Part shown: piece after piece, positions 687 through 55,251 of the stretch
Position numbering within the stretch: position 1 is the stretch's first letter
How the letters are laid out: every line of letters starts with the position of its first letter
NCBI GenBank assembly: GCA_036393835.1
Contig: DASWGI010000034.1
Location: 6,149-70,148, forward strand
DNA from: Myxococcales bacterium
GTDB taxonomy: Bacteria; Myxococcota; Myxococcia; Myxococcales; 40CM-4-68-19
Direction of reading: 5' to 3'
DNA length: 64,000 nt
Notes under the pieces: generated by a model
Databases searched by the model: none
Told to the model about the DNA's origin: nothing
Seen by the model: only the letters and a program-made list of their open reading frames with translations
Program-made: the position numbers and the translations under genes

Positions 687-706
687 CGCCGCCCTATCCG
701 GCGGCG
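687..706 (+). terminator. GC stem-loop CGCCGCC-ctatcc-GGCGGCG just after the stop of 139..672; hairpin-only relative of the intergenic repeat family
   Basis: A 7-bp perfect stem with a 6-nt loop containing TAT lies 15 nt after TAG 670-672. The stem sequence matches the hairpins at 6044, 9527, 29290 and 55196. There is no clear U-tract. Confidence 0.35.
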
Positions 707-740
707 GCCGTACCGTACAAAAACGTACGCCCAATCCTGC

Positions 741-768
741 TTGACAATCGTTTTGCTTTTGCTAACTG
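741..768 (+). promoter_or_regulatory. sigma70-like promoter candidate TTGACA-N16-TAACTG upstream of 837..1220
   Basis: TTGACA at 741-746 and TAACTG at 763-768 sit inside the only AT-rich island (about 672-790) of this region, 70 nt upstream of the ATG at 837. Confidence 0.35.
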
Positions 769-836
769 TACGCGCGGCCGAACGGCGCGATGCGCACCGG
801 CTTTGTTGCTAAGACTTTACGGAATCGGGAGGACCG

Positions 837-1220
837 ATGGCGCGCGGTCGCGGTCGTCGAAACCAAGGGATGGGCGCGTGGGTGCAGAACCTCGGCGAGC
901 AGATCGGCTCGCAGCTGGGCCAGATCATCGCCGAGAGCGTGCAGCGCTCGCTGCAGAGCACGATCGACGTGGGCGACATCGCTCGCCAGCTGGGCGTCGG
1001 CGGCCGCGGCCGAGGCCGGCGCGGCGGGGCGCGCGCCGTCTGCAGCGTGGCTGGATGCGGCCGCCCGGTGCTCGCCAAGGGATTGTGCCGCTCCCATTAC
1101 TACCGGGCACGCTACCGCGCGCAGAAGGCCGGCACGCTGCAACCCAAGCGCCGCGGCCGCCGCGCCTCGCGCAAGAAGTCGGGCGGCGAGTCCAGCGCCA
1201 GCGAGGCGTCGGCGTCGTAA
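837..1220 (+). CDS. small basic protein with CX4C...CX2H zinc-finger-like motif
   Basis: 127-aa ORF with an ATG start and GGAGG at 829-833. It contains the motif CSVAGCGRPVLAKGLCRSHYYRARY, which resembles the Cys/His loop often seen N-terminal to HNH-type proteins, followed by an Arg/Lys-rich tail. Confidence 0.6.
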   Translation: MARGRGRRNQGMGAWVQNLGEQIGSQLGQIIAESVQRSLQSTIDVGDIARQLGVGGRGRGRRGGARAVCSVAGCGRPVLAKGLCRSHYYRARYRAQKAGTLQPKRRGRRASRKKSGGESSASEASAS

Positions 1221-1264
1221 GCCGCCTCTTTCGGCCGCGGTGATCTGTTGTAGAGTCGGCGCGG

Positions 1265-4719: not shown

Positions 4720-4740
4720 GCGCAACTTCGGAGGTCGCCG

Positions 4741-6039
4741 ATGACGGCCGTGGGGTTCGCTCTTGCGCTCGGAGTGGGATGCGTCGCGTTCTGCCTCGGC
4801 TGGCTGCTCGCGCTGTCGCGCGCCGGCCGGGGCGAAGCCGGGCTGCAGGACGCGTTGCGGACCGAGTCGGCCCGGTGCGCGGGGTTCGAGGCGGTCTTGC
4901 AGGCGGAACGAAGGGCAGCCGAGGAGAAGGCGAAGTCCTCCGACGAGATGAACGCCCGGTTGCAAGACGCGTTCAAGTCGCTCTCGGTCGACGCGCTGCG
5001 CTCGAACAGGGACGAGTTCCTGCGCGTCGCGCAGCTCTCGATGGAGAAGTTCCAGGAGGCGGCGCGCGGCGACCTGGACCAGCGGCAGAAGGCCATCGCC
5101 GACCTGGTCGTTCCGGTGCGCGAGTCGCTCGACAAGGTGGACGGAAAGGTGCAGGAGCTGGAGAAGTCCCGGGCGGGCGCGTACGCGGCGCTGTGGCAGC
5201 AGGTGAAATCGCTCCACGACGAGACGGGGAAGCTGGCGACCGCGCTGCGGGCGCCCGCGCATCGGGGACGCTGGGCCGAGATCCACCTCCGGCGCGTGGT
5301 CGAGCTCACGGGTCTCTCGGAGCACTGCGACTTCTTCGAGCAGGTCACGGTCGCGGCCGACGGGTCCACCCTGCGGCCCGACATGGTGATCCGGCTGCCG
5401 GCGGGACGGACCGTGCTGGTCGACGCGAAGGCGCCGCTCGGCGCGTACCTCGAGGCCACCCAGGCCTCCGATGAGCCGACGCGAACCGCGCGGCTGCGCG
5501 ACCATGCGGCGCAGGTGCGGCAGCACGTCTTGCAGCTCAGGCGCAAATCCTACTGGGAGAGATTCGAGGACAGCGCCGAGTTCATCGTCATGTACTTGCC
5601 CAACGACGCGCTCCTCGCGGCTGCCCAGGAACAGGACGGCGAGCTGCTCGAGTGGGCGCTGTCGGAGCGCGTGGTGCTCGCCACTCCCGCCACCCTGTTC
5701 GCGCTGCTCCTCACCGTGGCGCACGGCTGGAAGCAGGAGAAGGTCGAGATCAACGCGCGCGAGATCGCCAATCTCGGGCGCGAGCTGCACAAGCGGGTCT
5801 CGGACTCCGCCGCCCACCTGGGCAAGCTGGGGCGCCACATCGAAGGGACGGTTCGCGCGTACAACGACACGGTGGGGTCGCTCGAGCGTCGCGTGCTGCC
5901 CGCGGCGAGGCGGTTCGAGGACCTGCAGGCATCGCACGCGGACGTCGAGATCGAGCCGCTCGTGGCGCTGGAGAGCGCGCCCCGGCCGCTCCTCGCGCCG
6001 GAGCTGACGGCAAAGGAGGTCCCCGAGGACGCGAACTGA
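4741..6039 (+). CDS. rmuC: DNA recombination protein RmuC
   Basis: 432-aa ORF with an N-terminal TM helix, a coiled-coil region and a C-terminal RmuC-type nuclease-fold region (RGRWAEIHLRRVVELTGL, DMVIRLPAGRTVLVDAKAPL, EFIVMYLPNDALL). Confidence 0.9.
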   Translation: MTAVGFALALGVGCVAFCLGWLLALSRAGRGEAGLQDALRTESARCAGFEAVLQAERRAAEEKAKSSDEMNARLQDAFKSLSVDALRSNRDEFLRVAQLSMEKFQEAARGDLDQRQKAIADLVVPVRESLDKVDGKVQELEKSRAGAYAALWQQVKSLHDETGKLATALRAPAHRGRWAEIHLRRVVELTGLSEHCDFFEQVTVAADGSTLRPDMVIRLPAGRTVLVDAKAPLGAYLEATQASDEPTRTARLRDHAAQVRQHVLQLRRKSYWERFEDSAEFIVMYLPNDALLAAAQEQDGELLEWALSERVVLATPATLFALLLTVAHGWKQEKVEINAREIANLGRELHKRVSDSAAHLGKLGRHIEGTVRAYNDTVGSLERRVLPAARRFEDLQASHADVEIEPLVALESAPRPLLAPELTAKEVPEDAN

Positions 6040-6043
6040 CGGC

Positions 6044-6075
6044 CGCCGCCGATAGGGCGGCGCTGCTCTCTTGGA
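6044..6075 (+). repeat. intergenic repeat family, truncated copy (hairpin CGCCGCC-gatag-GGCGGCG + ctgctctcttgg)
   Basis: Starts 5 nt after the rmuC stop. The stem is identical to the other copies. The 3' module is only partly conserved. Confidence 0.6.
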
Positions 6076-6095
6076 CCGGCCTGCCCGGGCCGTCC

Positions 6096-6124
6096 TTGAC
6101 CGTCCCGACCTCGCAAGTTAGCTT
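6096..6124 (+). promoter_or_regulatory. promoter candidate TTGACC-N17-TAGCTT upstream of pyrH
   Basis: TTGACC at 6096-6101 and TAGCTT at 6119-6124, 32 nt before the TTG start at 6157. Confidence 0.3.
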
Positions 6125-6156
6125 CCCGCGGCGCAAGAGCGCGCCGAGGTCGCACC

Positions 6157-6903: not shown

Positions 6904-6913
6904 GGAGGGCACC

Positions 6914-7477: not shown

Positions 7478-7496
7478 AGGCGCGGGGGCTTCCAAC

Positions 7497-8045
7497 GTGG
7501 CTGCGAGGAAGAAAGGGACGGCGAAATCCGGCGGCGGCAGGAGCCTGCTCGAGGCAGCCCGCGAGCACCAGGACGCGCTCCTCGCGGCGGGCCTGCCGTC
7601 GCAGGTGCTGGAGGATCTGGAAACCGCGCTGCGTGGGATGGCGGCGGGCGGTCAGCCGGGCCCCGCGGCGCAGGTGCTGATCCGCGACCTGGGGCGCGAG
7701 GTGGGCGAGATCCAGGCAGCCGTACGCAAGGAGTTCCCCGGGAACGCGGCGTTCCAGTCGGTGTTCAAGGCCGACGCGCCCGTCCCCGGCGAGCCGCGCC
7801 AGCTGCTGGCGCTCGGACGGCTGGTCGCGCGCGAGGCGCCCGACTACTCGGCGAACCTGATCAAGTACGCCATCAATGCCGCCACCGTGAAGCACCTTTC
7901 GTACCTCTGCGACCAGCTGGAAAAAGAGCTGGGCGGAGCGGATCCCGGCTCCGCCGCCAAGGCGGCCGAGGAGCAGATCCGGGCCGCGGCGGCGCGGGCG
8001 TTCAAGGGACGGCCGGAGCTGGCGGCATTCAGTCGACGCCCATAG
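7497..8045 (+). CDS. hypothetical protein
   Basis: 182-aa ORF with a GTG start 19 nt after frr. Coding-like composition. No family recognised. Confidence 0.55.
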   Translation: MAARKKGTAKSGGGRSLLEAAREHQDALLAAGLPSQVLEDLETALRGMAAGGQPGPAAQVLIRDLGREVGEIQAAVRKEFPGNAAFQSVFKADAPVPGEPRQLLALGRLVAREAPDYSANLIKYAINAATVKHLSYLCDQLEKELGGADPGSAAKAAEEQIRAAAARAFKGRPELAAFSRRP

Positions 8046-8092
8046 GGCGGCGCTGCGCTTTCGAAGCGCGGACGTCGCGGCATCCGTCTCAG
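8034..8092 (+). repeat. intergenic repeat family copy (diverged)
   Basis: cgacgccc-ata-gggcggcg hairpin, with the ORF's TAG stop in the loop, followed by ctgcgctttcgaagcgcggacgtcgcggcatccgtctcag. This aligns with the copies at 9524, 15674 and 55196. Confidence 0.6.
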
Positions 8093-8143
8093 ACCCGGCT
8101 GCCCGCTCCCAATCGGGGCCTCGGGCATCTACACTGCTCGGAC

Positions 8144-9523
8144 ATGTCCCTCGACCTGAAAGGCCCGGCCGGGCTGTCCGAGCCGATCGGCGGCAAGGCC
8201 CAGTTGATCGATTACTTCAGGGGCGCCGAGAAGCCGCGCGCCGAGTGGAAGGTCGGGGTCGAGCACGAGAAGATCGGCATCGTCGACGGCACGTTCGAGG
8301 CCGTCCCCTATTACGGGGAAACCGGGATCCGGTCGATCCTCGACGCGCTCGCGCGCGAGGCCGGCGGGGCGCAGCACGCGCACCGCGAGAACGGCCAGCC
8401 GATCGCGGTCCTCAAGGACGGCGCCAGCGTCACCCTCGAGCCGGGCGGCCAACTCGAGCTGTCCGGCGCGCCTCACCGCAGCCTGCGCGCCGCGCGGGAC
8501 GAGATCGAGCGCCACCTCGCGGTCCTCCGGGGCGTCAGCCGGCAGCGCGGCGTGCGTTGGCTGGCGACCGGCTACCGCCCGTTCGGATCGCGCGACGAGG
8601 TGCACTGGATGCCCAAGGGGCGCTACGCCGCGATGCGCAAGTCGCTCGGCCCGCGAGGCCGGCTCGCGCTGGACATGATGCTCATGACCGCCACCGTCCA
8701 GGCGAACCTGGACTGGAGCGACGAGCGGGACCTGGCCGAGAAGGTGCGCGCGGCCAGTTCCGCTTCGCCGCTCGTGACCGCGCTGTTCGCCAACAGCTCG
8801 GTCATCGCCGGGCGCGACAGCGGGTGGCTCGACTTCCGCTACCAGGTCTGGCGCGAGTGCGACCCCGACCGCTGCGGCCTGCTCGAGCCCATGTTCCGCG
8901 ACGGCTGGGGATACGAGGCGTACGTCGACTGGGCCCTGAGCGTCCCGATGCTGTTCGTGCGCCGCGGCTCCGAGTACCTGGATGCGCGCGGCCAGACGTT
9001 CGGCGACTGGCTGCGGACCGGCCGGCTGCGGTCGGGCGGGGTGGCCGAGCCGCGCCTCGGCAACTGGGTGGATCACCTGACCACGCTGTTTCCCGAAGTG
9101 CGGGTCAAGCGGGTGCTCGAGCTGCGCGGCGCGGACATGGTTCCTCCTCCTTACCTGCACGCCCTGGCCGCCGTCTGGGTGGGCCTCCTGCACGACCCCT
9201 CGGTCCGCCAGGCTGCCTGGGAACTGACGAAGGGGTGGACCTTCGCGCAGCGCCTCGAGTTCCAGGGGGACGTCGCGCGACGCGCGCTCGATGCGCAGGG
9301 CCCCGGCGGGCGCACCGCGCGCGACCTGGCCCGCGAGCTGCTCTTCGCCGCGCGCGCCGGGCTGTCCGCCTGGGCCGCCGAATCGGGCGACGACGTGCGC
9401 GGCGCGCTCGATCCGCTCGAGGACGTCCTCGCCCGCGGCACCCTGGCCGAGCGGGCGCTCGTGGTCCTGCAGGAAGCGCGCGGCGATCCCGCCGCGCTGG
9501 TCCGTTTCTGGCAAATCGCCTAG
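8144..9523 (+). CDS. gshA: glutamate--cysteine ligase, plant/alpha-proteobacterial type (GCS2 family)
   Basis: 459 aa with KVGVEHEKIG, VTLEPGGQLELSGAP, MMLMTATVQANLD and FPEVRVKRVLELRGAD, the signature blocks of GSH1-type GCL. Confidence 0.85.
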   Translation: MSLDLKGPAGLSEPIGGKAQLIDYFRGAEKPRAEWKVGVEHEKIGIVDGTFEAVPYYGETGIRSILDALAREAGGAQHAHRENGQPIAVLKDGASVTLEPGGQLELSGAPHRSLRAARDEIERHLAVLRGVSRQRGVRWLATGYRPFGSRDEVHWMPKGRYAAMRKSLGPRGRLALDMMLMTATVQANLDWSDERDLAEKVRAASSASPLVTALFANSSVIAGRDSGWLDFRYQVWRECDPDRCGLLEPMFRDGWGYEAYVDWALSVPMLFVRRGSEYLDARGQTFGDWLRTGRLRSGGVAEPRLGNWVDHLTTLFPEVRVKRVLELRGADMVPPPYLHALAAVWVGLLHDPSVRQAAWELTKGWTFAQRLEFQGDVARRALDAQGPGGRTARDLARELLFAARAGLSAWAAESGDDVRGALDPLEDVLARGTLAERALVVLQEARGDPAALVRFWQIA

Positions 9524-9585
9524 TCGCCGCCGTATTCGGCGGCGCTACGCTTTTCACAGTGCGGACGTTATGGGATGCGCTTTAG
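9524..9585 (+). repeat. intergenic repeat family, archetype unit 1
   Basis: tCGCCGCCG-tatt-CGGCGGCG-ctacgcttttcacagtgcggacgttatgggatgcgctttag begins directly after the gshA TAG. 8-bp perfect stem. Confidence 0.75.
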
Positions 9586-9648
9586 TCGCCGCCCCCCCAA
9601 GCCAGGGCGGCCCGACGCTTTTCATTGTGCGGACATTATGGGATTCAG
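9586..9648 (+). repeat. intergenic repeat family, tandem unit 2
   Basis: tcGCCGCCC-ccccaagcca-GGGCGGC-ccgacgcttttcattgtgcggacattatgggattcag. The hairpin sequence differs from unit 1 but still pairs, and the 3' module is conserved. Confidence 0.7.
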
Positions 9649-9684
9649 CGGAGAACACGGATCCACCACGTGAGGAGATCGAAC

Positions 9685-10308
9685 ATGAAGACCGCCCTGG
9701 CAGTCCTGCTGTTCGCAGCGCCCGCGCTGGCCGTCGAGCTCCAGGTCGACCCGGCCCATTCCACCGCCGGCTTCGCCATCAAGCACATGATGGTGAGCAC
9801 CGTGCACGGCAGCTTCGGGAAGGTCACCGGAACGGTGAACCACGACCCGAAGGACCCGACCAAGAGCAGCGCGAACATCCAGATCGATCCGGCCAGCCTC
9901 GATACTCGTGTCGAGAAGCGCGACGCGCACCTCAAGTCGGCCGACTTCTTCGAAGTGCAGAAGTGCCCGGACATGAGCTTCAAGTCGACCAAGATCGAGA
10001 AGGCGGGCGAGAAGAAGTACAAGGTCACCGGCGACCTCACCATGCACTGCACCACCAAGCCCGTCACCCTCGACGTCGAGGGATTGAACGGTCCGGTGAA
10101 GGGGGCGCAGGGCGCGAACTTGTACGCCGCGACCGCGACCGGCAAGCTGAGCCGGAAGGACTTCGGCCTCACCTGGAACAAGGCGCTGGAAGCCGGTGGC
10201 GTGGCGGTGGGCGACGAAGTGCAGCTGGTCGTTGACCTCGAGATGACCGATTCCCCTCCTGCGGCGAGGAAGGAAGCGCAGGCGGAGACCAAGCCGGCCA
10301 ACAAGTAG
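9685..10308 (+). CDS. YceI family periplasmic protein
   Basis: Starts at ATG 9685 (GAGGAG at 9672-9677), not the track start 9625, which lies in the repeats. Signal peptide MKTALAVLLFAAPALA. VDPAHSTAGFAIKHMMVSTVHGSF, TRVEKRDAHLKSADFF and FGLTWN are typical YceI blocks. Confidence 0.9.
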   Translation: MKTALAVLLFAAPALAVELQVDPAHSTAGFAIKHMMVSTVHGSFGKVTGTVNHDPKDPTKSSANIQIDPASLDTRVEKRDAHLKSADFFEVQKCPDMSFKSTKIEKAGEKKYKVTGDLTMHCTTKPVTLDVEGLNGPVKGAQGANLYAATATGKLSRKDFGLTWNKALEAGGVAVGDEVQLVVDLEMTDSPPAARKEAQAETKPANK

Positions 10309-14518: not shown

Positions 14519-15526
14519 ATGCGTACTCCCAACCACCCGCGCCTTCGTGGCGCGTGCCGCCTGCGCTCCGCTGCCACCGCCCTTGCCGCATCCTGCGCGT
14601 TCCTGCTGGCCTGTGCCGGTCTGCCGGCGGCGGCGCAGGCCGCCCCGCAGGCGCAGCCCGCGCCTTCCGCCGGGCGAGGTCTTTCCGAGGAGCAGGCGCG
14701 GCGGATCGTCCCGCGCGCCGACCTCTCGGGCCTGAGCGACGAGCAGCGCGCCCAGTTCCTCGAGGTGGCTGGAGACGTGTTCGACTACGCCGGCTGCAAG
14801 GACACCCTGGCGAAGTGCCTGGGCGCGAACGTGCAGGACGTGCACGCGGTGCGCATGGCCGAGCTGGTCAAGGCGCTGCTCCTCGAAGGCGGCACGCCGT
14901 CGCGCCTGATCGAAACGGTCGAGAGCTACTACGCCTCGTTCGACGCCTCCAAGCGCCAGGCGCTCAAGACGAACGACTGCCCGATGCTGGGCGACCCGAA
15001 GGCTCCCGTCGCGGTGGTCGAGTTCAGCGACTACCAGTGCCCGCACTGCGCGGTCGCCAACAAGCCGCTGCACGACCTCGTCACCGGCCCCGAGAAGGGC
15101 AAGGCGAGATTGTGCTCGAAGTTCTTCCCGCTCCCCGGCCATGCGCGCGCGCGCATCGCCGCCGGCTGCGCCGAGTACGCCCGCCGCCAAGGCAAGTTCT
15201 GGCCGATGAACGACCTGCTCTTCGCCCACCAGGACGAGCTGGACGACGACAGCCTCAAGGGCTACGCGAGGCAGCTCGGGCTCGACGGCGCGCAGATGCT
15301 CAAGGAGGTCTACGCCGGCCGCTTCGAAGGCGTGATCGAGGCCCACCTGCAGGAGGGAATCGCCGCGCGGGTGCAGGCGACCCCCACCGTGTTCGTCAAC
15401 GGCCGCCAGCACGTGCTGCCCATGAAGCTGCAGTTCCTCCAGCGGTCGGTCGAGGACGAGCTGGAGTGGCAGCAGAACAAGGCGTTCGTCTACGAGGGAC
15501 GCGACGGCCGGGAGAAGAAGGGTTGA
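14519..15526 (+). CDS. DsbA-family thiol:disulfide oxidoreductase (secreted)
   Basis: ORF 14468..15526; ATG 14519 is preferred. Signal sequence ...AFLLACAGLPAAAQA. Thioredoxin-fold active site FSDYQCPHCA. ATPTVFVNG is typical of DsbA-like proteins. Confidence 0.8.
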   Translation: MRTPNHPRLRGACRLRSAATALAASCAFLLACAGLPAAAQAAPQAQPAPSAGRGLSEEQARRIVPRADLSGLSDEQRAQFLEVAGDVFDYAGCKDTLAKCLGANVQDVHAVRMAELVKALLLEGGTPSRLIETVESYYASFDASKRQALKTNDCPMLGDPKAPVAVVEFSDYQCPHCAVANKPLHDLVTGPEKGKARLCSKFFPLPGHARARIAAGCAEYARRQGKFWPMNDLLFAHQDELDDDSLKGYARQLGLDGAQMLKEVYAGRFEGVIEAHLQEGIAARVQATPTVFVNGRQHVLPMKLQFLQRSVEDELEWQQNKAFVYEGRDGREKKG

Positions 15527-15673
15527 CACAGGTCCCGGCGGCAAGCGCCGGGCGCTCCGCGAGGGTTCCCCCCCCGCCGACCTGCTGAACTTCCTCCACA
15601 ACGGGCGGCGCGACGGCGTGCTGCTCGCGCGGAGCGGCGGGACGGAGCGCGCGGTGGCGCTGATCCATCTGCT

Positions 15674-15730
15674 CGTCGCGCAGAGCGGCGCTACGCTTTT
15701 CAAAGCGCGGGCGCTAAGGGATGCATTCAG
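15674..15730 (+). repeat. intergenic repeat family copy (weak hairpin, good 3' module)
   Basis: cgtcgcgcagagcggcg-ctacgcttttcaaagcgcgggcgctaagggatgcattcag. The last 10 nt overlap the annotated truD ATG at 15721. Confidence 0.6.
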
Positions 15731-16800
15731 TGGCCGGTCTGCTCAGTCCGCGCGAGGTGCCGCTGCTGACGCCCCAACTGCCGGGGACCTCGGGCTTGGT
15801 GCGCGTGTCCGAGCAGGACTTCCGCGTGGAGGAGCTGCCGCTCTACGAGGCCCGCGGCGAGGGCGGGCACCTTCTACTCCTGGTCGAGAAGTCGGGCCGG
15901 ACCACGCCCGAGGTCGCGCGCGAGCTGGCGATCGCGCTCGCCGTTCGCGAGCGCGAGGTGGGCTACGCGGGGCTGAAGGACAAGCGCGCGGTCGCCGTGC
16001 AGCGGTTCAGCGTCCCGGTGCCGCCGCGCAGCCCGGACTTCGCGCGGCGCGGCGCTGCCGCGGCGGGGACGGGCTGGCGCGTGCTGTCGGCCGCGCTCCA
16101 CGGGAACAAGCTGCGGCCCGGACACCTGCGCGGGAACCGCTTCCGGATCGTGGTGCGCGGCGTGGTGGAGGGCGCGCTGGAGCGGGCCGAGCGCGTCTGT
16201 GCCGAGCTGCGGTCGCGCGGGGCGCCCAACCTGTACGGCGCGCAGCGGTTCGGGCAGCGCGGCGACAACGCCGCGCTGGGCGCGGCCATCCTCCGGCGCG
16301 AGGCGGCGCCGCGCGATCGGTTCCTCCACCGGCTCGCGCTCTCCGCGTTGCAGGCGGAGCTGTTCAACCGCTGCCTGTCGGCCCGGCTGCGCGACGGCCT
16401 GTTCGATGTGGCCATCCCGGGGGACGTGCTGCGCAAGCGGCAGACGGGCGGTCTGTTCGTGTGCGAGGACGCTTCCGCGGACACGCCGCGCGTCAAGGCA
16501 GGCGAGGTCGATCCCACGGGCCCTCTCCCCGGCCATTCCCTGTTCGCCACCCGCGCCGACGCTCTCGCCCGCGAAGCCGCCGTCGTCTCCGAGGCAGGCG
16601 TGGATCCCCGTTCCTTCGCCGCCGGCGGCGGCGAGATGGAAGGGTCGAGGCGCCCCTACCGGGTCGCGGTGGAGGACCTCCGCGTCGAGGCAGCGGGCGC
16701 GGACGCAGTGGTGCTCGAGTTCGCGCTTCCCAGGGGCAGCTATGCAGCATGCGTCCTGCGGGAGGTGATGAAGGAGGGCCCTCCTGCGGAGGAGGACTGA
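15721..16800 (+). CDS. truD: tRNA pseudouridine(13) synthase TruD
   Basis: 359 aa with FRVEELP, GYAGLKDKRAVAVQ (catalytic Asp block) and LYGAQRFG. The start may instead be the in-frame GTG at 15730. Confidence 0.9.
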   Translation: MHSVAGLLSPREVPLLTPQLPGTSGLVRVSEQDFRVEELPLYEARGEGGHLLLLVEKSGRTTPEVARELAIALAVREREVGYAGLKDKRAVAVQRFSVPVPPRSPDFARRGAAAAGTGWRVLSAALHGNKLRPGHLRGNRFRIVVRGVVEGALERAERVCAELRSRGAPNLYGAQRFGQRGDNAALGAAILRREAAPRDRFLHRLALSALQAELFNRCLSARLRDGLFDVAIPGDVLRKRQTGGLFVCEDASADTPRVKAGEVDPTGPLPGHSLFATRADALAREAAVVSEAGVDPRSFAAGGGEMEGSRRPYRVAVEDLRVEAAGADAVVLEFALPRGSYAACVLREVMKEGPPAEED

Positions 16801-16885: not shown

Positions 16886-18553
16886 ATGACGCGTACCCGG
16901 CTCTGGACTTTCGCTGCCCTGGTCGCGGTGGTCCTGGTGGCGAATCTGGCGCTGGTGTCGGCCCGGTTCGCGCAGACGGTCGAGGAGGGGTTGGCATCCC
17001 GCCTGACCGTGGCGTCCGGCGGATTGCGCACCCAGATCGAGCTGGTCGACCTGCGCAGCTCGCCCCGGATCGCTGCGTTCAACCCGGAGCTGGTCGAGGC
17101 GACCAAGCCGGGCGCCGACGCGTCGCAACAGCCGTCCCGGCCGGACGAGCGCGCCCTGCGGGCGGCGGCGGCCGCGCTCCAGCCCGAGCCCGATCTGCTG
17201 GTGGTGGCGACCGCCCACGCCGCCGCGGTCTCGCGCCGGGGCAAGGCCGCCTCGCTTTCCGAGGACCCGGCCCGGCTGCCGCTGATCCGGATCGCGCTGG
17301 AGGGCGGAGGCGCATCGCCCCAGTTCGTCCCCGAAGGCGGCAAGCTGTACCGGGCGGCGGCGGCGCGCATCCCGGGCAACGCCGCGGTGGTGTTGACCGG
17401 GACGCTGATCGACGACCGCTTCGCCGCGCAGCTCCGCAGCCTGGTCGACGCGGACGTGACCTTCCTCCAGCAGGGCGCGGTGGTGGCCAGCTCGCTGCCT
17501 CCCGACGATCGCGCCGCGCTGGCTGCGTGGGCGAAGGCGCCGGCCGGCGCCGGGTTCGGAGCGCTGCGCGTCGCGCTGCCCTACGTCGGGACGCGCTTCT
17601 CGGAGCACCTCCCGCTCGGCGCTCCTCGCGCCGCGACCCGGGCGGCGCTGGCGCCGCTCGCGCAGGGCATCCAGGGCGCGGTCTCCGTGCCGGCCGCCCC
17701 GCACCTCGCCTGGCTCGCTCGCTACCAGGCGTTCTACGCGGCGGGCTGGGCGCTCTTCGTCCTCGCCGCCTTCGTCTCGGGCCTGTTCGCCGGCAGCGCC
17801 CCCCGAGCGCCAGCCGCGGGCCGGCCGGCGCCGGCTCCTTCTCCGGCGCGTGCGAGGAAGGAGGAGGCCCAGGCGCGGGCAGAGCCCGCGGCTTCGGAGG
17901 CCCCCTGGAGCGACGAGCCGGTCTCCGCGCCCCGGCGGGCGGCCGCCGGGGGACGCGAGCCGCTCGATCCGGCGCTGGCGCCGATTCCCGCCAGGGACGA
18001 GGAGCCGCAGTTCGGCCAGCTTCCGGCGTCCGCGGGCGCCGATCCAATGTGGAGCGACGATTCGTTTCGGCCGCCCGGAGGCGCGCAGAGCGAGCTGGCG
18101 CCGAGCGGGCTGGAGCTCGCGAGCGAACCGCCCGCCCGGAACGCCCCCCGCGAGCAGGACGGGGAGCAGCCCGGCGCCGCGCCCGCGGCGCTCGGCGCGG
18201 GCTGGTCGGATGCCCCCGCTGCCGGTGCCGCGCCTGCTCCGGGAGGATGGGGAGCGGCGGATCCGGGCACCGCGGAGCCGTGGCCGCCGCCAGAGCCGGA
18301 AGCTCCGGCCGGCCGGGAAGCTCCGGCCGGCGGCGAAGACCCGGACGAGGCGCATTTCCGCGAGACCTTCGACAAGTTCATGGCTCTGCGCGCCGAGACC
18401 GGCGAGACGGGGAACCTCACCTACGAGAAGTTCGCCGCCAAGCTCCGTCAAAACCGCGAGCAGATGCTTTCGCGAGGCTCGGCGCGAACGGTGCGGTTCA
18501 CCGTCTACAAGAAGGACGGCCGGGCGGCGATCAAGGCGAGCGGGCTGCGCTGA
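16886..18553 (+). CDS. membrane protein with periplasmic sensor-like domain, Pro/Ala-rich cytoplasmic linker and conserved myxobacterial C-terminal domain
   Basis: ORF 16847..18553; ATG 16886 is preferred. Two TM helices (LWTFAALVAVVLVANLAL and AGWALFVLAAFVSGLF). The C-terminal HFRETFDKFMALRAETGE...LTYEKFAAKLRQNRE...VRFTVYKKDGRAAIKA resembles, from memory, the MXAN_5187-type C-terminal domain. Confidence 0.65.
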   Translation: MTRTRLWTFAALVAVVLVANLALVSARFAQTVEEGLASRLTVASGGLRTQIELVDLRSSPRIAAFNPELVEATKPGADASQQPSRPDERALRAAAAALQPEPDLLVVATAHAAAVSRRGKAASLSEDPARLPLIRIALEGGGASPQFVPEGGKLYRAAAARIPGNAAVVLTGTLIDDRFAAQLRSLVDADVTFLQQGAVVASSLPPDDRAALAAWAKAPAGAGFGALRVALPYVGTRFSEHLPLGAPRAATRAALAPLAQGIQGAVSVPAAPHLAWLARYQAFYAAGWALFVLAAFVSGLFAGSAPRAPAAGRPAPAPSPARARKEEAQARAEPAASEAPWSDEPVSAPRRAAAGGREPLDPALAPIPARDEEPQFGQLPASAGADPMWSDDSFRPPGGAQSELAPSGLELASEPPARNAPREQDGEQPGAAPAALGAGWSDAPAAGAAPAPGGWGAADPGTAEPWPPPEPEAPAGREAPAGGEDPDEAHFRETFDKFMALRAETGETGNLTYEKFAAKLRQNREQMLSRGSARTVRFTVYKKDGRAAIKASGLR

Positions 18554-18575
18554 GCGCCGGGACTCCCGCCCGCGA

Positions 18576-21500
18576 CTACTTCGGCTCTTTGTAGAAGTCG
18601 TCGGGAGTGGGCGCCGGCGCGTCCAGCTGCTGCTGGGTCGGCTCGGTGCCCGCAAGGAAGCACTCCCGCACCGCGAACGGATCGTTCTCCCCCGCGAGCG
18701 CGCCCGAGCTGCGGTTCACCCTGAGGCAGCTCACCCCGGGCGCCGGCTGCGGCCACTCCTCGACCTCCGTCCCCGAGGTCGCCGCCCGCATCCACGACAG
18801 CCAGATGGGACCCGCGCAGTGCCCTCCCGTCTCGTAGTTGCCCATCATCCGGTGGTCGTCGAATCCGACCCAGGCTCCGGCGATGATCGACGGCGTGAAC
18901 CCGATGAACCACCCGTCGCGGTGCTCGTTGGCGGTCCCCGTCTTGCCGGCGATCGGCCGCCCGAGCGCGGTCAGCGAGTGCGCGGTGCCCTCCGGGTCGT
19001 CGATCACCGACCGCATGAGGTCCGCGGTGAGGTAGGCCACGTCCGGGCGCATGCTCTGCTGCAGGTCCGGCTGCGCCGCCTGCAGCGTGGCGCCGTCTCG
19101 CGAGACGATGCGCCGGACGAGCACCGGCGCCGCCCTGCGTCCCTGCGAGGCGATGGTCGCGTACGCGTTCACCATCTCCAGCACGCCCACCTCGCCGGTG
19201 CCGAGCGCCGCCGTGTAGCTCTGCGGGATCTCGCTGGAGAGTCCCGCCGCCATCGCCTCGGAGCGCACCTTGTCGAGCCCGACGCTGAGCAGGAGCTTCA
19301 CCGCGACCGTGTTCTTCGACTCCGCCAGCGCCTTGCGCAGGGTCAGCGGGCCGGCGAACTCGTCCTTCTCGAAGTTCTGCGGCTTCCAGGGCTTGCCGGT
19401 CCAGGGGTCGACGATCACCTCCGGCGAGTCGTCCACCTTGGTCACGGGCGTGTACTTCCCGCTCTCCAGCGCGGCCGCGTAGAGGAACGGCTTGAAGCCC
19501 GAGCCGGGCTGCCGCCGCGCCTGGGTGGCGCGGTTGAACGAGCTGAGCGCCTCGTCGTACCCGCCGACCAGGGCCAAGACCTGACGACTGCGCAGGTCCA
19601 TGCCGATGAACGCGCCTTGCACCGCGGGCGTCTGCTCCAGCGCGAGATCGAGCCGCGTGACCCGCAGCCGGTTCGGCGCGTCGCGCGTTGCCGAGAACCG
19701 CAGCACGCGCACCGGCACCACGTCGCCGACGGAGAGCACGTCGAGCGCGCTGCGCGGCGGCGGGGTCGGGTGCTCGGGTTGGAACTCGCGCGCCCACGAC
19801 ATGGTCGAGAAGGGGACGGTGCCCTGCGCGGAGGGAGCCAGCTCCACCCGCGCCTCGCGCGCGCTCACCGAGACCACGATGCCGCCGTAGATCGCGTTCT
19901 GCTCCAGCGTCCGGGTGCGCGCCGCGCGCGCGAACGAGTCGGGCTGCAGCGCTTCCTTCTCGGAGATGCCCTCCAGGTCGAAGGCCTCCACCGCGTCCGG
20001 CCCCCTGGCGACCTGCGTGTACCTTCGCGCCAGCGCGGCGCGGAAGTCGTCCAGGCGCGAGGCGTCGAGCCGGATGGGCGCGCCGCGCCAGCCCTGCCGC
20101 TTGTCCACCGCGCGCAGCCCCTCCTGCACCGCCTGCTCGGCCGCCGCCTGGACCCGCGGGTCCATCGCCACTTCCACGGTCATCCCGCTGGTCTCGACGG
20201 CCGTGTCGCCGTACTGCGCGATGAGCTGCCTGCGCACCTCCTCCAGGTACCACCCGCCGGGCGGGTCGGGAGGGAGGGCGGGCAGCGAGATCGCCTTCTC
20301 CACCTCGGCGTCGTGGTCCGCGCGCGAGATGTAGTGGTTCGCCAGCATGCGATCGAGCACGTAGATCTGGCGCCGCTTGGCGCGGTCCGGGTGCCGCCGC
20401 GGATTGATCCGCGCGGGGTTCTGCGGCAGCCCGGCGAGGATCGCCGCCTCGCCCAGGTCGATGTCCCAGACGTGCTTGTTGAAGTAGTAGAGGGACGCCT
20501 CCTCGACTCCGTAGCGCGCGCGGCCGAAGTTGATCTGGTTCAGGTAGAGGAAGAGGATGTCGTCCTTGGAGAGGTTCTTCTCCAGGCGCATCGAGAGGAG
20601 GATCTCCTTCAGCTTGCGCCGCCAGCGCTTCTCGCTGCCGAGGAAGAAGTTCTTCACCACCTGCTGCGTGATGGTGGAGGCCCCCAGGCGCTTCTGCCCG
20701 CTGAGCGCGTCGACGATCGCGGCGCGGACCAGCGAGAACGGGTTGAAGCCGGGGTGCTTGTAGAAGTCCTTGTCCTCCGCCGAGACCACCGCCTGCACGA
20801 GCACGCGCGGGATCTTGTCCATCGAGACGACGGTGCGGCGCTCCCGGTAGAACTGCCCGACCACGGTGCCGTCCTGGGCCACCACCTTGGTGGACACCAT
20901 CGGGTGGTAGTCCTTCACGCTGTCGAAGGTGGGGATCTCGCGCGCGAGGTACAGGTAGCCGGCGACGAGGCCCAGCAGCAGGAGCGCGGCGCCCGCGCCG
21001 CAGATCCAGGCGGCGCGGCGCAACCAGATCTTCCAGCGCGGCGGCCCGGCCGGGACGTGGCCTTCGTAGTCGTCCGCCGGCACCGGGCGGTAGGGCTCTA
21101 CCTCGGGCTCGGAAGGCTCGGCCGGCGGCGGCGGCTTCGGGGTGGGGCGCGCGCGCAGGAACGCCGTCGCTCCCGGAGAGTCGTCCTCCGACGGAACGGG
21201 CTCGGGCTCGGGCTCCGGCGGCTCGGGCTCCGGCTCGTCCGGGATCTCCGCGGCGTGCTCGTCCCACCAGGCGCCGCGGCGGCCCTTCTTCTGCGCCGGG
21301 GCGGGCAGCGCCACGACGCGCTTGGGAGGAGGAGGCGGGGCGGGCTCCTCGTCGGGGAGCGAGACCTGCAGCCCCTTGCGGGGCGCGAGCGGCGCTTGCT
21401 CCTTGCGGGGGCGCTGCTGCCCACCCGGGCCGTCGAGGCGCACGAACGCGGTACCGCCCGGCACGTCGTCGGCGGCGGGAGCGGGTTGCGCGCGCATCGC

Positions 21501-27973: not shown

Positions 27974-29223
27974 CGCTTGCCCTTTCCGGCCGGCTTCTTC
28001 GCCGCCGCCTTCTTGGCGGGCTTCTTCGCGGCCGCCTTCTTCGCGGGCTTCTTCGCGGCGGGCTTCTTCGACTTCGCGGCCGGCTTGGCGGCCTTCTTCG
28101 CGGGCGCAGGCTTCGCCTTGGACGGCGCGGGCCTGCCCGGCGCCCTGGCCGCGGGCTTCGCCGGCGCGAGCACCTTGGCCGCGACTTCCAGCGCCTTGGC
28201 GGCGATCGACCGGGCGACGCCGCGTGCCTCCTCGCCGCCGGCAGGGCGCGCGTCGGCGCGTTTCGGCTCCGGCCCCGCGGGCGGCCCCGCCTTGGGCGCG
28301 GCCGCGGGCGCGGGTCCGCGCTTGGCCTGCGGCCTGGTCGTCCCGGGCGGAGCGTGCAGCTTCGCGCTCGGCTGCGCCGCCGCGTCCTCGTGGGTGGCCT
28401 CGAGAGCGTCCTTGGCAAGCTCGTCCAGCGGCTCCGGCTCCTCCTCCCCGGCCGTGACGCGCATCGCCCGCTGCCGCACCAGGTCCTTCGTCTCGGCGGG
28501 ATCGGCGATGTCCGACTCCTCCGTATCCGCCGCCTGGGCGGCCTTCGACTCGCCGCCGCCTTCCACGTCGACCTCGCCGAAAGCCATCTCGTCGTCCATC
28601 TCGTCGTCGGCCGCGCGCGAGGCCGGCCGCGCCGCGCCGACGCTCGAGCCGGGCACCGCGAGCGCGGCGGGCTGCAGCGGCTTGCCCTTGCGCTTCATGC
28701 CCGGAGGGGGCCAGAGCGCGTAGTCCAGGTTGTCCTCGGCGACGTGCAGCGGGAGGTTCATCGCGGCGGCGATCTCGCCGACCAGCAGGTGCCGCGCGCT
28801 GTCGTACAGCTCGCGCTCCTTCTGCGGGAGCGGACGCACCCGGCTCAGCGCGTGCAGGCCCTTGAGCACGTCGAGCGTGCCCTGCAGCCCGCCGCCCGTC
28901 ATCCGGTCCGCGTTCTCCCGGTGCCGCACCTTCCAGTCGAGCTGCGGATCGTCCCCGGGCGCGGCGAGCTGGTCGAACATGTCGTCGATGGCGGCGACGC
29001 TCGCCACCTTGCGCAGCCCGATGCCCATCACCTTGGCGCGCGGCACCATCACCGTCGCGCCGTCCTCTTCGCGCGACAGGGTGACGACCTCCCAGTCGCG
29101 GCCGGCGATCTGCTTCACCTCCACGCCGGTGATGCGGCAGATGCCCTGGTTCGGGTACACGACGCGGTCGCCGATGTGCAGGCTGCCGTCGCCGATCTGG
29201 ATCTCGGTGCCCTTGTTCGCCAT
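27970..29223 (-). CDS. carD: CarD: CarD_CdnL_TRCF N-terminal domain + acidic region + histone-H1-like Lys/Ala/Pro C-terminal tail
   Basis: ORF 27970..29262; ATG 29223 is preferred. N-terminal LHIGDRVVYPNQGICRITGVEVKQIAGRDWEVVTL is CdnL/CarD-like. An acidic stretch (DDEMDDEMAFGEVDVEGGGE) follows. The tail is KAKPAPAKKAAKPAAKSKKPAAKKPAKKAAAKKPAKKAAAKKP. Confidence 0.85.
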   Translation of the reverse strand: MANKGTEIQIGDGSLHIGDRVVYPNQGICRITGVEVKQIAGRDWEVVTLSREEDGATVMVPRAKVMGIGLRKVASVAAIDDMFDQLAAPGDDPQLDWKVRHRENADRMTGGGLQGTLDVLKGLHALSRVRPLPQKERELYDSARHLLVGEIAAAMNLPLHVAEDNLDYALWPPPGMKRKGKPLQPAALAVPGSSVGAARPASRAADDEMDDEMAFGEVDVEGGGESKAAQAADTEESDIADPAETKDLVRQRAMRVTAGEEEPEPLDELAKDALEATHEDAAAQPSAKLHAPPGTTRPQAKRGPAPAAAPKAGPPAGPEPKRADARPAGGEEARGVARSIAAKALEVAAKVLAPAKPAARAPGRPAPSKAKPAPAKKAAKPAAKSKKPAAKKPAKKAAAKKPAKKAAAKKPAGKGKR

Positions 29224-29233
29224 CGCGCCCGAT

Positions 29234-29262
29234 CCGGTACACCGCGCGCCCCGAGCGGTCAA
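29234..29262 (-). promoter_or_regulatory. promoter candidate TTGACC-N17-TACCGG, 10 nt before the carD ATG (near-leaderless)
   Basis: On the minus strand, TTGACC lies at 29262-29257 and TACCGG at 29239-29234. The -10 is weak. There is no SD before ATG 29223. Confidence 0.25.
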
Positions 29263-29280
29263 CGCGCCTCGAGCGCCTGC

Positions 29281-29312
29281 AAAGCGCAGCGCCGCCGAAT
29301 ACGGCGGCGGCT
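29281..29312 (-). repeat. intergenic repeat family copy, inverted orientation, hairpin + CGCTTT only
   Basis: The minus strand reads gccagCCGCCGCCG-tatt-CGGCGGCG-ctgcgcttt, directly after the TGA of the TetR-like relic frame (29317-29319). Confidence 0.65.
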
Positions 29313-29316
29313 GGCC

Positions 29317-43493: not shown

Positions 43494-43495
43494 CG

Positions 43496-47177: not shown

Positions 47178-47207
47178 ACACACCCCGGATCCATTCAGGC
47201 CTCGGTA

Positions 47208-47237
47208 TTGATTATCGTGGATCGAATCGCGTATATT
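47208..47237 (+). promoter_or_regulatory. internal dcw promoter candidate TTGATT-N18-TATATT between murG and murC
   Basis: This is the only sizeable gap (73 nt) in the cluster and it is locally AT-rich. TTGATT at 47208-47213 and TATATT at 47232-47237. The spacer contains GTGGATCGAA (47217-47226), identical to the first mraZ-proximal box. Confidence 0.4.
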
Positions 47238-47250
47238 CCCGCGAAGGAAG

Positions 47251-50488: not shown

Positions 50489-50501
50489 GGAGGGGAATTC
50501 C

Positions 50502-51722: not shown

Positions 51723-51734
51723 ACCGGAGGGGTC

Positions 51735-52952: not shown

Positions 52953-53083
52953 CCCAAAAGATCAACGCGGAGGCGCAGAGGCGCGGAGATCCGATTTGCT
53001 TACTCGACCGGGCACCCGCGTCCGCTCGCGAAAACCTGACAATCTCCGCGCCTCCGCGTTCGGCTTTGAAGGCTGGAGAGGCG

Positions 53084-53479
53084 TCAGTCGCGGGAGCGGC
53101 CGGAGAGGAAGGCGCCGGCGCGGGCGGTGAGCTGGGCGGTGCGGGCCAGCTGGGCGTCGAGGCGGGCGAACACGTCCTCGGCCCGATCGTGCAGCGCCAC
53201 GTCGCGGCCCTCGCCGAGGCGGGCGAAGAGATCGACCAGCTTCTGCAGCGTCTGGTGCTCGCGCAAGAGCTCGCGCGCGGCGCGGCTGCCCTTCTGCGTG
53301 AAGACGAGCCCGCTCGCGAACAGCCGCGTGAGCGCGGCGCGGTTCCCGTCCATCACCGAGCGCACCCTTCGCTCGGCCAGCTCGCGCCGCCGCTCCTCGC
53401 GGACCGACGAGAGATCCACCACGGTGGCCCGCGACCGCCGCCGTCTCCCGCTCCGCGCATGCCGCATCGCCTTGGCCAT
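53084..53479 (-). CDS. hypothetical small helical basic protein
   Basis: ORF 53084..53506; ATG 53479 after GGGAAGGGG is preferred. Convergent with ftsZ. No family recognised. Confidence 0.45.
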   Translation of the reverse strand: MAKAMRHARSGRRRRSRATVVDLSSVREERRRELAERRVRSVMDGNRAALTRLFASGLVFTQKGSRAARELLREHQTLQKLVDLFARLGEGRDVALHDRAEDVFARLDAQLARTAQLTARAGAFLSGRSRD

Positions 53480-53603
53480 CCCCTTCCCGTGGAACGGAAC
53501 GCGCACAGGTTAGACGCGCACGCAGTGCCCGGTCAACGTGAGCGGCGCGCGCTCGGCTGGAGTATGCTGCGCCGCCTTTCCGCGCCGCCGGAGGCAACCC
53601 GAC

Positions 53604-54977
53604 GTGTTCCACAAGCTGCTCATCGCCAACCGCGGCGAGATCGCCTGCCGCGTGGCGCGCGCGGCGCGCGCGCTGGGCGTCCGCACCGTCGCCGTGTACT
53701 CCGACGCCGACGAGCGATCGCTGCACCTCGAGCAGTGCGACGAGGCGGTGCGCCTGGGCCCCGCGCCCGCGCGCGAGAGCTACCTGGACGCGGAGAAAGT
53801 GCTGGCCGCCGCGAAGAGCACCGGCGCCGAGGCGATCCATCCCGGCTACGGCTTCCTCTCCGAGCAGGCCGACTTCGCGCAGGCCTGCGCCGCGGCCGGG
53901 TTGGTCTTCGTGGGCCCGCCGCCCGGGGCGATGCGCGCGATCAAGGACAAGTCGCAGGCGCGCGCGGTGATGCGCGGCGCGGGCGTGCCGGTCGTCCCGG
54001 GGTCCGAGGGGCACGTGACGCCCGAGCTCGCCGCCGACGAGGCGCGGGCCCTCGGCTTCCCGCTCCTGGTCAAGGCGGCGGGCGGCGGCGGCGGGATCGG
54101 CATGCAGGTGGCGAACGACGAGCCGGAGCTGCTCAAGGGGCTGCGCGCCTGCTCGGACCGGGCGCGCGCCTCGTTCGGCAAGGACGCGGTCTACCTGGAG
54201 CGCTACTTCCCGGCGCCGCGGCACGTGGAGGTGCAGGTCCTGGGGGACGGGCGCCTCACCCTGCACCTCGGCGCGCGCGAGTGCTCGATCCAGCGGCGCC
54301 ATCAAAAGATTTTGGAAGAGGCGCCGGCCGCCGCCTTCGAGCTCCCCTCGCCCCGGCCGCGCCTGCGGGACGAGCTGCTCCAGGCGGGCCTGGCCGCGGC
54401 GCGCGCGGTGGGCTACGCCAACGCCGGCACCTGCGAGTTCCTGCTGGTCGGCGACCAGGTCTACTTCATCGAGCTGAACGCGCGGCTGCAAGTGGAGCAC
54501 CCGGTGACCGAGGCGGTGACCGGCCTCGACCTGGTGCAGCTCCAGATCCGCATCGCGGCGGGCGAGCACCTGCCCATCGGCCAGGGCGACGTGAAGACGC
54601 GCGGGCACGCGATCGAGTGCCGCGTCAACGCCGAGGACCCGGTGAGGTTCTTTCCCTCGCCCGGCAAGATCGTCCGGTTCGAGACGCCGGTTCCCGCCGA
54701 CGGCCGGTTCCACGACGGCGTCCGCGTCGACGCGGGATACCGTGCGGGCGACACGGTGACGCCCTTCTACGACTCGCTGCTCGCGAAGCTCGTGGTGCAC
54801 GGCCCCACCCGCGCCGAGGCCATCGCGCGGCTGGGCGCCGCGCTCGACGCCTTCGCGGTCGAGGGAGTCAAGACCAACCTTCCGCTCCACCGCCGAATCG
54901 CCGCATCGCCCTTCTTCGCGCGCGGCGAGCTCGACACCCGTTTCCTGGAACGACTGACTCAGGAGGTCCCGCCTTGA
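53604..54977 (+). CDS. accC: biotin carboxylase (acetyl/acyl-CoA carboxylase subunit)
   Basis: GTG 53604 after GGAGG. KLLIANRGEIACRV, HPGYGFLSE, LLVKAAGGGGGIGM, CSIQRRHQK and FIELNARLQVEHPVTE. Confidence 0.9.
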   Translation: MFHKLLIANRGEIACRVARAARALGVRTVAVYSDADERSLHLEQCDEAVRLGPAPARESYLDAEKVLAAAKSTGAEAIHPGYGFLSEQADFAQACAAAGLVFVGPPPGAMRAIKDKSQARAVMRGAGVPVVPGSEGHVTPELAADEARALGFPLLVKAAGGGGGIGMQVANDEPELLKGLRACSDRARASFGKDAVYLERYFPAPRHVEVQVLGDGRLTLHLGARECSIQRRHQKILEEAPAAAFELPSPRPRLRDELLQAGLAAARAVGYANAGTCEFLLVGDQVYFIELNARLQVEHPVTEAVTGLDLVQLQIRIAAGEHLPIGQGDVKTRGHAIECRVNAEDPVRFFPSPGKIVRFETPVPADGRFHDGVRVDAGYRAGDTVTPFYDSLLAKLVVHGPTRAEAIARLGAALDAFAVEGVKTNLPLHRRIAASPFFARGELDTRFLERLTQEVPP

Positions 54978-55189
54978 TCGACGTGCCCGCCCACATCACC
55001 GGCACCGTCTGGAAGATCGAGAAGAAGCCCGGCGACCCGGTGTCCGCCGGAGACGTGCTGGTGATCATCGAATCGATGAAGATGGAGATGCCCGTCGAAG
55101 CGCCCGAGGACGGCAAGGTCTCGGAGGTCCGCTGCAAGGAAGGGCAGCCGGTCAGCGAAGGCGAGGTGCTGGTCGTGCTCGCCAAATGA
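54974..55189 (+). CDS. small biotinyl/lipoyl-attachment domain protein (BCCP-like, 71 aa)
   Basis: TTG 54974 after AGGAGG overlaps the accC TGA. VLVIIESMKMEMPVEAPEDG contains the biotinylation motif (E/A)MKM. It lacks the N-terminal part of a canonical AccB. Confidence 0.8.
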   Translation: MIDVPAHITGTVWKIEKKPGDPVSAGDVLVIIESMKMEMPVEAPEDGKVSEVRCKEGQPVSEGEVLVVLAK

Positions 55190-55195
55190 GGGCCG

Positions 55196-55251
55196 GCCGC
55201 CGTATTCGGCGGCGCTGTGTTCATGGCGCGGACGTCATGGATGCGCTTCAG
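55196..55251 (+). repeat. intergenic repeat family copy between convergent genes
   Basis: GCCGCCG-tatt-CGGCGGC-gctgtgttcatggcgcggacgtcatggatgcgcttcag. It begins 7 nt after the BCCP-like stop, and its last 4 nt overlap the stop of the minus-strand regulator (55248-55250). Confidence 0.7.

Follow-up and report, generated by a model that had tools for sequence, protein, structure and literature searches.

The 64,000-nucleotide stretch of a Myxococcales contig analysed here (DASWGI010000034.1, positions 6,149 to 70,148; hereafter the window) carries eight copies of a repeat family whose full unit is 62 nt long and is preceded by the trinucleotide YAG. To judge from the sequence comparisons, the family is very probably a lineage-specific, non-autonomous mobile repeat of the kind of the repetitive extragenic palindromes (REPs) or the miniature inverted-repeat transposable elements (MITEs), which is mobile or was so recently. 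Its insertions lie immediately 3′ of YAG (or YA), mostly a TAG or TAA stop codon, in a genome of 72% GC, and a base of this flank changes together with a base inside the unit. The best explanation, which we regard as rather probable, is a REP-like, hairpin-tagged miniature element moved as single-stranded DNA (ssDNA) by an HUH-type transposase, and the family is best filed as a new REP-like variant and not as a new class of repeat.

The family was searched for with an nhmmer profile for which 64 distinct copies served as input, most of them taken from loci other than the window. Exactly eight places of the window were matched, with E-values from 1e-19 to 0.018, and the profile search found no further copy in the 64 kb. 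These are the same eight places listed in an initial annotation of this DNA, and the modules common to the window copies, namely a CGCCGCC/GGCGGCG hairpin, the run GCT(A/G)CGCTTTTCA and GCGGACGT.ATGGGATGCG, were likewise borne out. Four copies are full, a decayed one included; in a fifth the 5′ hairpin arm is missing, two consist of the 5′ half only and one is a short form (Table 1). The repeat family is genuine; it was also picked up by an independent repeat search of the window, as repeats D12 and I14, and a degenerate consensus pattern of 42 nt had no match in any of 100 shuffled versions of the window (a generic hairpin regular expression was too permissive for use). Some details of the annotation had to be revised. 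The unit, described at about 60 nt, was refined to 62 nt preceded by YAG, with the boundaries of the full copies given in Table 1; the copy at 687, read as a plus-strand hairpin, is an inverted 5′ half (minus orientation); and the rule that copies start 0–15 nt after a stop codon or have it in their loop, which stands for the other copies, fails at the one placed at 15674 because the upstream TGA (15524–15526) is about 150 nt away. The search for additional copies beyond the window, which the same annotation had called for, located them at at least 113 distinct full loci and in four metagenome-assembled genomes (MAGs). The absence of a described Rfam family was confirmed, as a search of the whole window against Rfam 15 at gathering score gave 0 matches and relaxing the threshold to E≤10 on positions 9450–9720 returned only chance-level matches (E 2.5 or worse).

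The consensus reads YAG, followed by YCGCCGCC, a loop (GATAG, GTATTC or GTAATC), GGCGGCG, CT(A/G), CGCTTTTCA, nn, GCGCGG, AC, nnnnn, GGGATGCG, YTC and YRG, with 62 nt past the YAG. The layout comprises a 7-bp GC hairpin (hairpin 1), a 3-nt foot (CTA or CTG) and a conserved non-palindromic module of about 35 nt (the 3′ module), and no terminal inverted repeats were found. In an RNAalifold analysis of 74 distinct copies hairpin 1 is lengthened by three pairs between the YAG and the CTR foot, namely flank base −3 with its internal partner and, at the two positions after it, A:T and G:C, and the first base of the unit is bulged. This extended helix is 95% paired, DNA and RNA folding both produce it, and in four copies the outer stem pair is changed from C:G to G:C, a compensatory exchange that agrees with the earlier remark that pairing is kept where the stem sequence differs. 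The accompanying proposal, selection on structure rather than on a peptide, can be upheld for hairpin 1 and is not clear for the 3′ module, which shows conserved sequence and no convincing helix. This module is the best-conserved sequence of the unit, also between genomes, and persists where hairpin 1 has been lost (15684–15730 in the window, and loci L014, L010 and L053; L-numbers denote loci from 1.07 Mb of soil-metagenome and MAG DNA). Its two candidate helices are 82% and 87% paired, depend on G:T/U pairs and present little covariation. We take the module to be a putative protein recognition module. Promoter readings of it (sigma-70, sigma-54 and extracytoplasmic-function sigma factor spacing) gave no fit by eye or by scan.

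The most telling regularity of the family concerns its flanks. Among the 74 copies, flank base −3 (T or C) and internal column 35, the base after GGCGGCGCT (A or G), form the combinations T:A in 34 and C:G in 32, with 8 others (Fisher p = 6e-17), and their mutual information is 0.82 bit, compared with 0.38 bit for the best internal subfamily marker. Two subfamilies are thereby distinguished, an A type (TAG/CTA) and a B type (CAG/CTG). A second correlation, between the Y of the 5′ flank and the terminal Y at the 3′ end of the unit, is weaker (p ~0.01). An element that moves leaves its flank behind, and the empty sites already have TAG, TA or TCAG; target choice by base pairing is therefore the simplest reading of the covariation.

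The comparison of filled and empty sites supports insertion 3′ of a specific short target without a target-site duplication (TSD). At one locus the empty site (L056) reads gccgTAG/ATGgcc, and in L084 the TAG and the ATG directly flank 56 nt from a unit that is somewhat decayed. At another, the empty site of L109 is cctccTCAGgcgg (in unit orientation), and L006 and L062 have cctcctCCAG, the unit (ending in GCATTCAG) and gcag. The third case is the site 3′ of the glutamate-cysteine ligase gene (GCS2), which is empty in L140, L141 and L136 (gccTAAAAGGC) and in L143 (gcgTAGAAGGC), filled by one unit in L078 (gccTAG[62 nt]AAAGGC), by two units in the window and in L122, and by one decayed unit behind a TGA in L142. 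By GCS2 identity the window groups with L142 and L078 with L140; filled and empty lineages are thus interleaved, so that this site was either hit twice or precisely vacated. The insertion there amounts to 63 nt relative to all four empty sites, and a mutation-free reading would place it between the TA and the A of TAA, the first G of the unit restoring TAG. The pairs L117/L114 and L009/L055 were rejected as empty sites, being a rearranged remnant and an upstream deletion, respectively. A TSD is further made unlikely by near-identical copies of the MAG SMAG_U2820 in which the flank and terminal tetranucleotides disagree (TTAG...CTGG, CTAG...CCGG and CTAG...TCAG). The copy at 8033 is absent in L078, L140, L143 and L136, where the stop codon is the gene's own TAA or TGA, and it is present and decayed in L142. 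Such decay of orthologous copies speaks against a need for each of them, and since fixed copies decay, most single copies are probably dispensable. Tandem arrays have zero spacing, and the number of units in them (1, 2 or 3) varies among orthologous loci.

The position of the units relative to genes was analysed with 91 copies having an intact hairpin, gene ends being placed by codon-position GC. The 5′ flank is TAG in 50/91 and CAG in 30/91 (YAG, 88%), and the tetranucleotides are CTAG (36), CCAG (14), TTAG (8), TCAG (8) and GTAG (only 4); TAG or YAG is conserved before the hairpin, the leading G is not. In 29/91 the TAG of an upstream same-strand gene directly abuts the unit (offset −3), and in 8/91 the upstream open reading frame (ORF) enters the unit and ends at a TAA or TAG in the loop (+9 to +11). 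In 16 copies, including that at 55194–55251 of the window, the last 4–5 nt of the unit contain the stop codon of a convergent neighbour (CTA or TCA on the unit strand). The flanking genes are oriented with respect to the unit as (+,+) in 48 cases, (+,−) in 18, (−,−) in 18 and (−,+) in 7. Occupancy of available sites is low, as TAG accounts for 14 of the 46 stop codons of the window and only one of these 14 has a full copy. Many copies are found 0–3 nt ahead of the next start codon inside conserved operons (TAG, unit and ATG in L084; the PatA_N–TruD pair), and in L032 and L028 the terminal CTAG or TCAGG of the unit completes the last sense codon of a convergent gene and supplies its stop. The end of the unit, YAG or YGG, is itself target-like; therefore, what followed the target still follows a YAG after insertion, and new copies can land behind old ones, which explains the head-to-tail arrays. 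The downstream junction is shown to be regenerated in this way, with the upstream stop, an overlapping start and a convergent stop (terminal CTA/TCA) all kept.

The distribution beyond the window is narrow. A strict pattern was met at 12 places among 185,579 species-representative genomes, 9/12 in the single Myxococcales MAG SMAG_U2820 and the remaining three in two further Myxococcales MAGs and one 'Deltaproteobacteria' MAG, so that all named records carrying the unit are Myxococcales or Deltaproteobacteria MAGs. A looser pattern matched at least 119 soil-metagenome contigs, and the non-redundant set contains, besides the full loci mentioned above, many partial copies in the 1.07 Mb. No copy was seen at E≤1 (nhmmer) in the syntenic relatives L136–L139 (about 74 kb), and since the GCS2 proteins of these are 65–88% identical, the family is confined to a narrow clade.

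In the mechanism that we propose, the CTR foot inside the unit would pair with the YAG of the flank, lengthening hairpin 1 and leaving the first base of the element as a bulge, and this pairing may select the target and the cleavage site on ssDNA, as in the TnpA of IS200/IS605 and in TnpA-REP. Units of the A type (CTA) would then go to TAG and those of the B type (CTG) to CAG, with an HUH tyrosine transposase presumably supplied in trans and insertions elsewhere probably purged by selection. Most copies would form part of the sense transcript of the upstream gene, at its 3′ end, where hairpin 1 may affect mRNA 3′ ends or translation termination. For the guide-directed HUH mechanism as such, we consider the chances about even.

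Several features of the family have counterparts in known systems. Tagged REPs are palindromes placed after GTAG or its variants, located between co-directional or convergent ORFs; at convergent genes the distance to either ORF end is less than 20 bp, and a TAG stop is frequently supplied by the REP termini (PMC3733652). TnpA-REP cleaves at a CT 5′ or 3′ of the hairpin, the GTAG being regarded as the equivalent of the IS200/IS605 guide, with presumed pairing to this CT (PMC8266576). The family described here resembles REPs and their REP-associated tyrosine transposases (RAYTs) in a short tag, often TAG, that immediately precedes a GC-rich hairpin (6–13 bp stem), in many dispersed and lineage-confined copies (hundreds for REPs), in the location between co-directional and convergent ORFs near 3′ ends with a tag that is often a TAG stop, and in a foot, CT(A/G), that would correspond to the CT. 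It differs from them in the first base of the tag (C/T here, G in REPs), in the size and greater asymmetry of the unit (62 nt including the non-palindromic module, against 20–50 nt, although rare short forms of about 32 nt occur here), in the arrays (head-to-tail with zero spacing, whereas inverted pairs, the BIMEs or REPINs, dominate in REPs and head-to-tail dimers are rare) and in a tag of which at least the TA comes from the target, according to the empty sites. In IS608, guides beside the hairpins read the cleavage and target sites by pairing (PMC3201880, PMC5934647), and here too the target is complementary to a short internal sequence at the hairpin foot. Further likenesses to IS200/IS605 are the asymmetric ends lacking terminal inverted repeats (as in palindrome-associated transposable elements, PATEs), the insertion 3′ of a short specific sequence with no duplication, and data compatible with precise excision, the empty sites being identical to those of outgroups. 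The whole element is, however, only 62 nt long, and there is no gap between its hairpin and the left cut site, as against about 19 nt in IS608; with respect to the imperfect hairpins at both ends of PATEs, hairpin 1 is clear and a second hairpin is weak. Mycobacterial interspersed repetitive units (MIRUs; Supply et al. 1997) are reportedly 40–100 bp tandem units with small ORFs in frame with the neighbouring genes, short repeats between operon genes whose ends are said to overlap the flanking stop and start codons. The resemblance lies in short repeats of a high-GC genome that fit exactly between genes with ends overlapping stops and starts; the unit differs in having no through-ORF in two of three frames, in its hairpin and tag, and in its dispersed single copies.

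Other observations weigh against a hairpin-tagged element moved by an HUH transposase. No Y1/HUH transposase was recognised in the 1.07 Mb of loci by motif regular expressions, and tblastn with IS608, IS200 and RayT queries gave nothing convincing there, both being weak tests on a small sample; as no RAYT or IS200-like gene was found, membership in the REP/RAYT group is a tentative assignment, even though this was the best fit of the three readings offered in the initial annotation. The putative guide is located 3′ of the hairpin, not 5′ as in IS608, and consists of a plain Watson-Crick extension of the stem, and one guide may serve both ends; the tag is paired with the 3′ foot (95% of cells), whereas an unpaired tag is reported for REPs. 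As another reading of the covariation, the YAG may belong to the element, the evidence to the contrary being three to four empty sites only, and the cut may lie at TA/G or at TAG/, since GCS2, the one site that discriminates, needs 63 and not 62 nt. The co-orientation with genes is confounded with target strand, replication direction and possible selection at the RNA level. Finally, neither candidate helix of the strongly conserved 3′ module has convincing covariation.

One alternative would be a distinct type of ssDNA mobile element, in which a single CTR triplet guides both the choice of the target YAG and the recognition of its own 3′ end, the element lands on stop codons with scarless junctions, and the 3′ module is bound by a host factor or by an enzyme that is possibly not a RAYT. 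We consider this unlikely; if true, the A and B subfamilies would be a natural example of retargeting by one base change. A little less likely still is that the unit is mainly a functional RNA, either a 3′-UTR (untranslated region) or intercistronic hairpin sequestering the stop codon (with effects on mRNA stability, termination or coupling) or a small RNA derived from a 3′-UTR, a reading also offered in the initial annotation, with mobility as a secondary trait. About 73% of the copies are in sense orientation directly behind a gene of the same direction, the stop codon forms part of the paired region of the extended hairpin, the G:U pairs of the candidate 3′ helices are possible only on the unit strand, the sequence of the 3′ module is highly conserved between genomes, and REPs are thought to act as RNA elements (PMC3733652). 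The orthologous copies are, however, present, absent or decayed among close relatives (L142, L078, L140), the flanking genes are unrelated in function, 18 copies are antisense between (−,−) gene pairs, and the rarity of full copies at the TAG stops of the window, the lack of an Rfam match and the poor covariation of the 3′ helices point in the same direction. Covariation between flank and element at independent loci would also be hard to obtain by compensatory mutations after insertion. A side role at the RNA level is plausible.

Another candidate origin is a MITE of a DDE transposase that targets and duplicates TA or CTAG (IS630/Tc1-like), which would yield CTA(G...C)TAG. Many copies of one MAG do have CTAG at both ends, the weak correlation between the flank Y and the terminal Y speaks for it and the GCS2 site fits insertion after TA; nevertheless, terminal inverted repeats are absent, near-identical copies have discordant ends, the extra G at the filled GCS2 site is not predicted by TA duplication, the L084 copy ends in CCGG before the ATG with no TA, and duplication does not explain the covariation of flank base −3 with an internal base. 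This origin is accordingly very improbable. Least probable of all, and hardly to be expected, is a transcription terminator cassette spread or recruited behind genes, as the initial annotation had considered. The unit does lie downstream of stop codons and has a GC hairpin followed by CTACGCTTTTCA, but the T run is only 4 nt long and placed 6 nt from the stem, a scan of the consensus flags no plus-strand copy (among the window copies only the inverted half-copy at 687 was flagged, on the minus strand), many copies are 0–3 nt before the next start inside conserved operons, and the long conserved 3′ module would be superfluous for termination.

REP-like repeats are known mainly from gamma- and alphaproteobacteria. 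A family from uncultured soil Myxococcales offers natural data on how such repeats spread, with clean filled and empty sites and two subfamilies whose difference at the target base is matched by one at an internal base. The proposed REP-like element leads to a concrete prediction, that the CTR foot sets the target, and the design of its ends explains why such repeats often supply stop codons and fit exactly between genes. There is also a consequence for annotation, since gene ends and starts in carrier genomes run into the repeat, which probably breaks metagenome assemblies of the carrier lineage as well.

Table 1. Repeat copies of the window and the stop codon adjoining the tandem pair
Feature	Position	Strand	nhmmer match
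Half-copy, 5′ half, inverted: hairpin 1 and CCGTGCTTTT	677-709	-	E 1e-4
Short form: hairpin 1 directly followed by CTGCTCTCTTGG, middle of the 3′ module missing	6044-6075	+	6042-6072, E 0.018
Full but decayed unit, B type	8033-8092	+	8029-8089, E 3e-8
TAG stop of the glutamate-cysteine ligase gene (8144-9523), 5′ tag/target abutting the first unit	9521-9523	+	
Full 62-nt unit, A type	9524-9585	+	9520-9585, E 1e-19
Second unit, head-to-tail tandem, zero spacing	9586-9648	+	9582-9646, E 5e-10
Copy without the 5′ hairpin arm	15684-15730	+	15680-15729, E 7e-11, profile positions 17-66
Half-copy, 5′ half only: CCAG tag, hairpin 1, CTGCGCTTT, then similarity lost (repeat I14)	29277-29314	-	E 9e-7, profile positions 3-40
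Full unit with small deletions, between convergent genes	55194-55251	+	55196-55251, E 7e-10

The first unit of the tandem pair displays the complete architecture, with hairpin 1 (CGCCGCC/GGCGGCG) closing the loop GTATTC, a CTA foot pairing with the TAG tag, the 3′ module and a terminal TTTAG, and the second has a divergent hairpin (GCCGCCC...GGGCGGC) and ends in TCAG. The decayed unit at 8033 has its CAG tag at 8030–8032 and a CTG foot, and the upstream ORF (7497–8045) reads into it and stops at the loop TAG (8043–8045). At 55194 the upstream TGA (55187–55189) precedes the unit by 4 nt, and the stop codon of a minus-strand response-regulator gene, TCA at 55248–55250, falls within the terminal TTCAG; the same arrangement is repeated in L001–L004. 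The inverted half-copy at 677 is located 4–15 nt past the TAG stop (670–672) of a plus-strand gene.

The copy lacking the 5′ arm retains a remnant of the 3′ arm (GCGGCG), the CTA foot and the 3′ module, has orthologues in L067 and L024, and its last G (15730) is the first base of a candidate GTG start (15730–15732) of the gene for TruD (tRNA pseudouridine synthase D). L024 (near 1350, reverse strand) shows the same use of the final G of its unit, and in unit-free relatives the stop and the TruD start are adjacent or overlapping (TAGATG in L138, with the ATG directly after the TAG; TTGA in L137). About 150 nt of the PatA_N–TruD spacer (15527–15683) are rearranged with respect to L067: the 3′ module and the motif ctgctgaacttcctccRcaacGGGCGGCGC are contiguous in L067, and in the window the motif lies about 85 nt upstream of the module, where the intervening stretch is bounded by GGCGGCGC repeats.

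The short form begins 4 nt past the stop codon of RmuC (TGA, 6037–6039), in a place where L136–L139 have 17–22 nt instead, and forms of this type were also seen in L011, L037, L068 and L096. It sits between that stop and a promoter-like pair, tccTTGACCgtc ... gTTAGCTtcccgcgg, which is conserved upstream of pyrH (window 6085–6125, L136:7990–8030, L137:8490–8530) and is left undisturbed.

In the loci no long parent element (5′ half, ORF and 3′ half) was found, nor was a tnpA-bearing parent insertion sequence (IS) with the ends of the unit. For eight copies reduced to the 3′ part, the upstream ORFs are ordinary genes except in L039. There, a 5′-truncated ORF of an IS110-family transposase (L039:669–1603) ends about 20 nt before a unit reduced to its 3′ module (...ggtta/CTACGCTTTTCA...). 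This transposase was rejected as a parent: the IS is found nowhere else in the loci, and the arrangement more likely arose when an IS110-type IS landed in a unit, separating hairpin 1 from the 3′ module. IS110/IS1111 elements are known to insert into REPs.

The remaining sequence of the window, whose GC content is 72.5%, includes the dcw cell-division cluster and no tRNA genes. The half-copy at 29277 is just upstream of the start of a minus-strand gene (27970–29262) with 15-nt-period repeats (GGCTTCTTCGCGGCC-like) at 27972–28116, which would encode an Ala/Lys-rich repeat protein. Two convergent genes are 24 nt apart at 18551–18580 (TGA at 18551, TAG on the minus strand at 18578), and the spacer between them, TAGTCGCGGGCGGGAGTCCCGGCGCTCA, starts like the repeat (TAG TCGC...) and is unrecognised by the profile, being either a very old remnant or a coincidence. 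An 18-nt-period tandem repeat of about 10 copies (CGGAGTCGCAGTCGCTGT-like) at 60699–60885, within a long ORF region, probably encodes an acidic Asp/Ser-rich repeat on one strand. Finally, positions 56261–56530 and 58105–58374, which are 1844 nt apart in two neighbouring FHA-domain genes (seen in L001), have about 76–77% identity and are probably the product of a tandem gene duplication.

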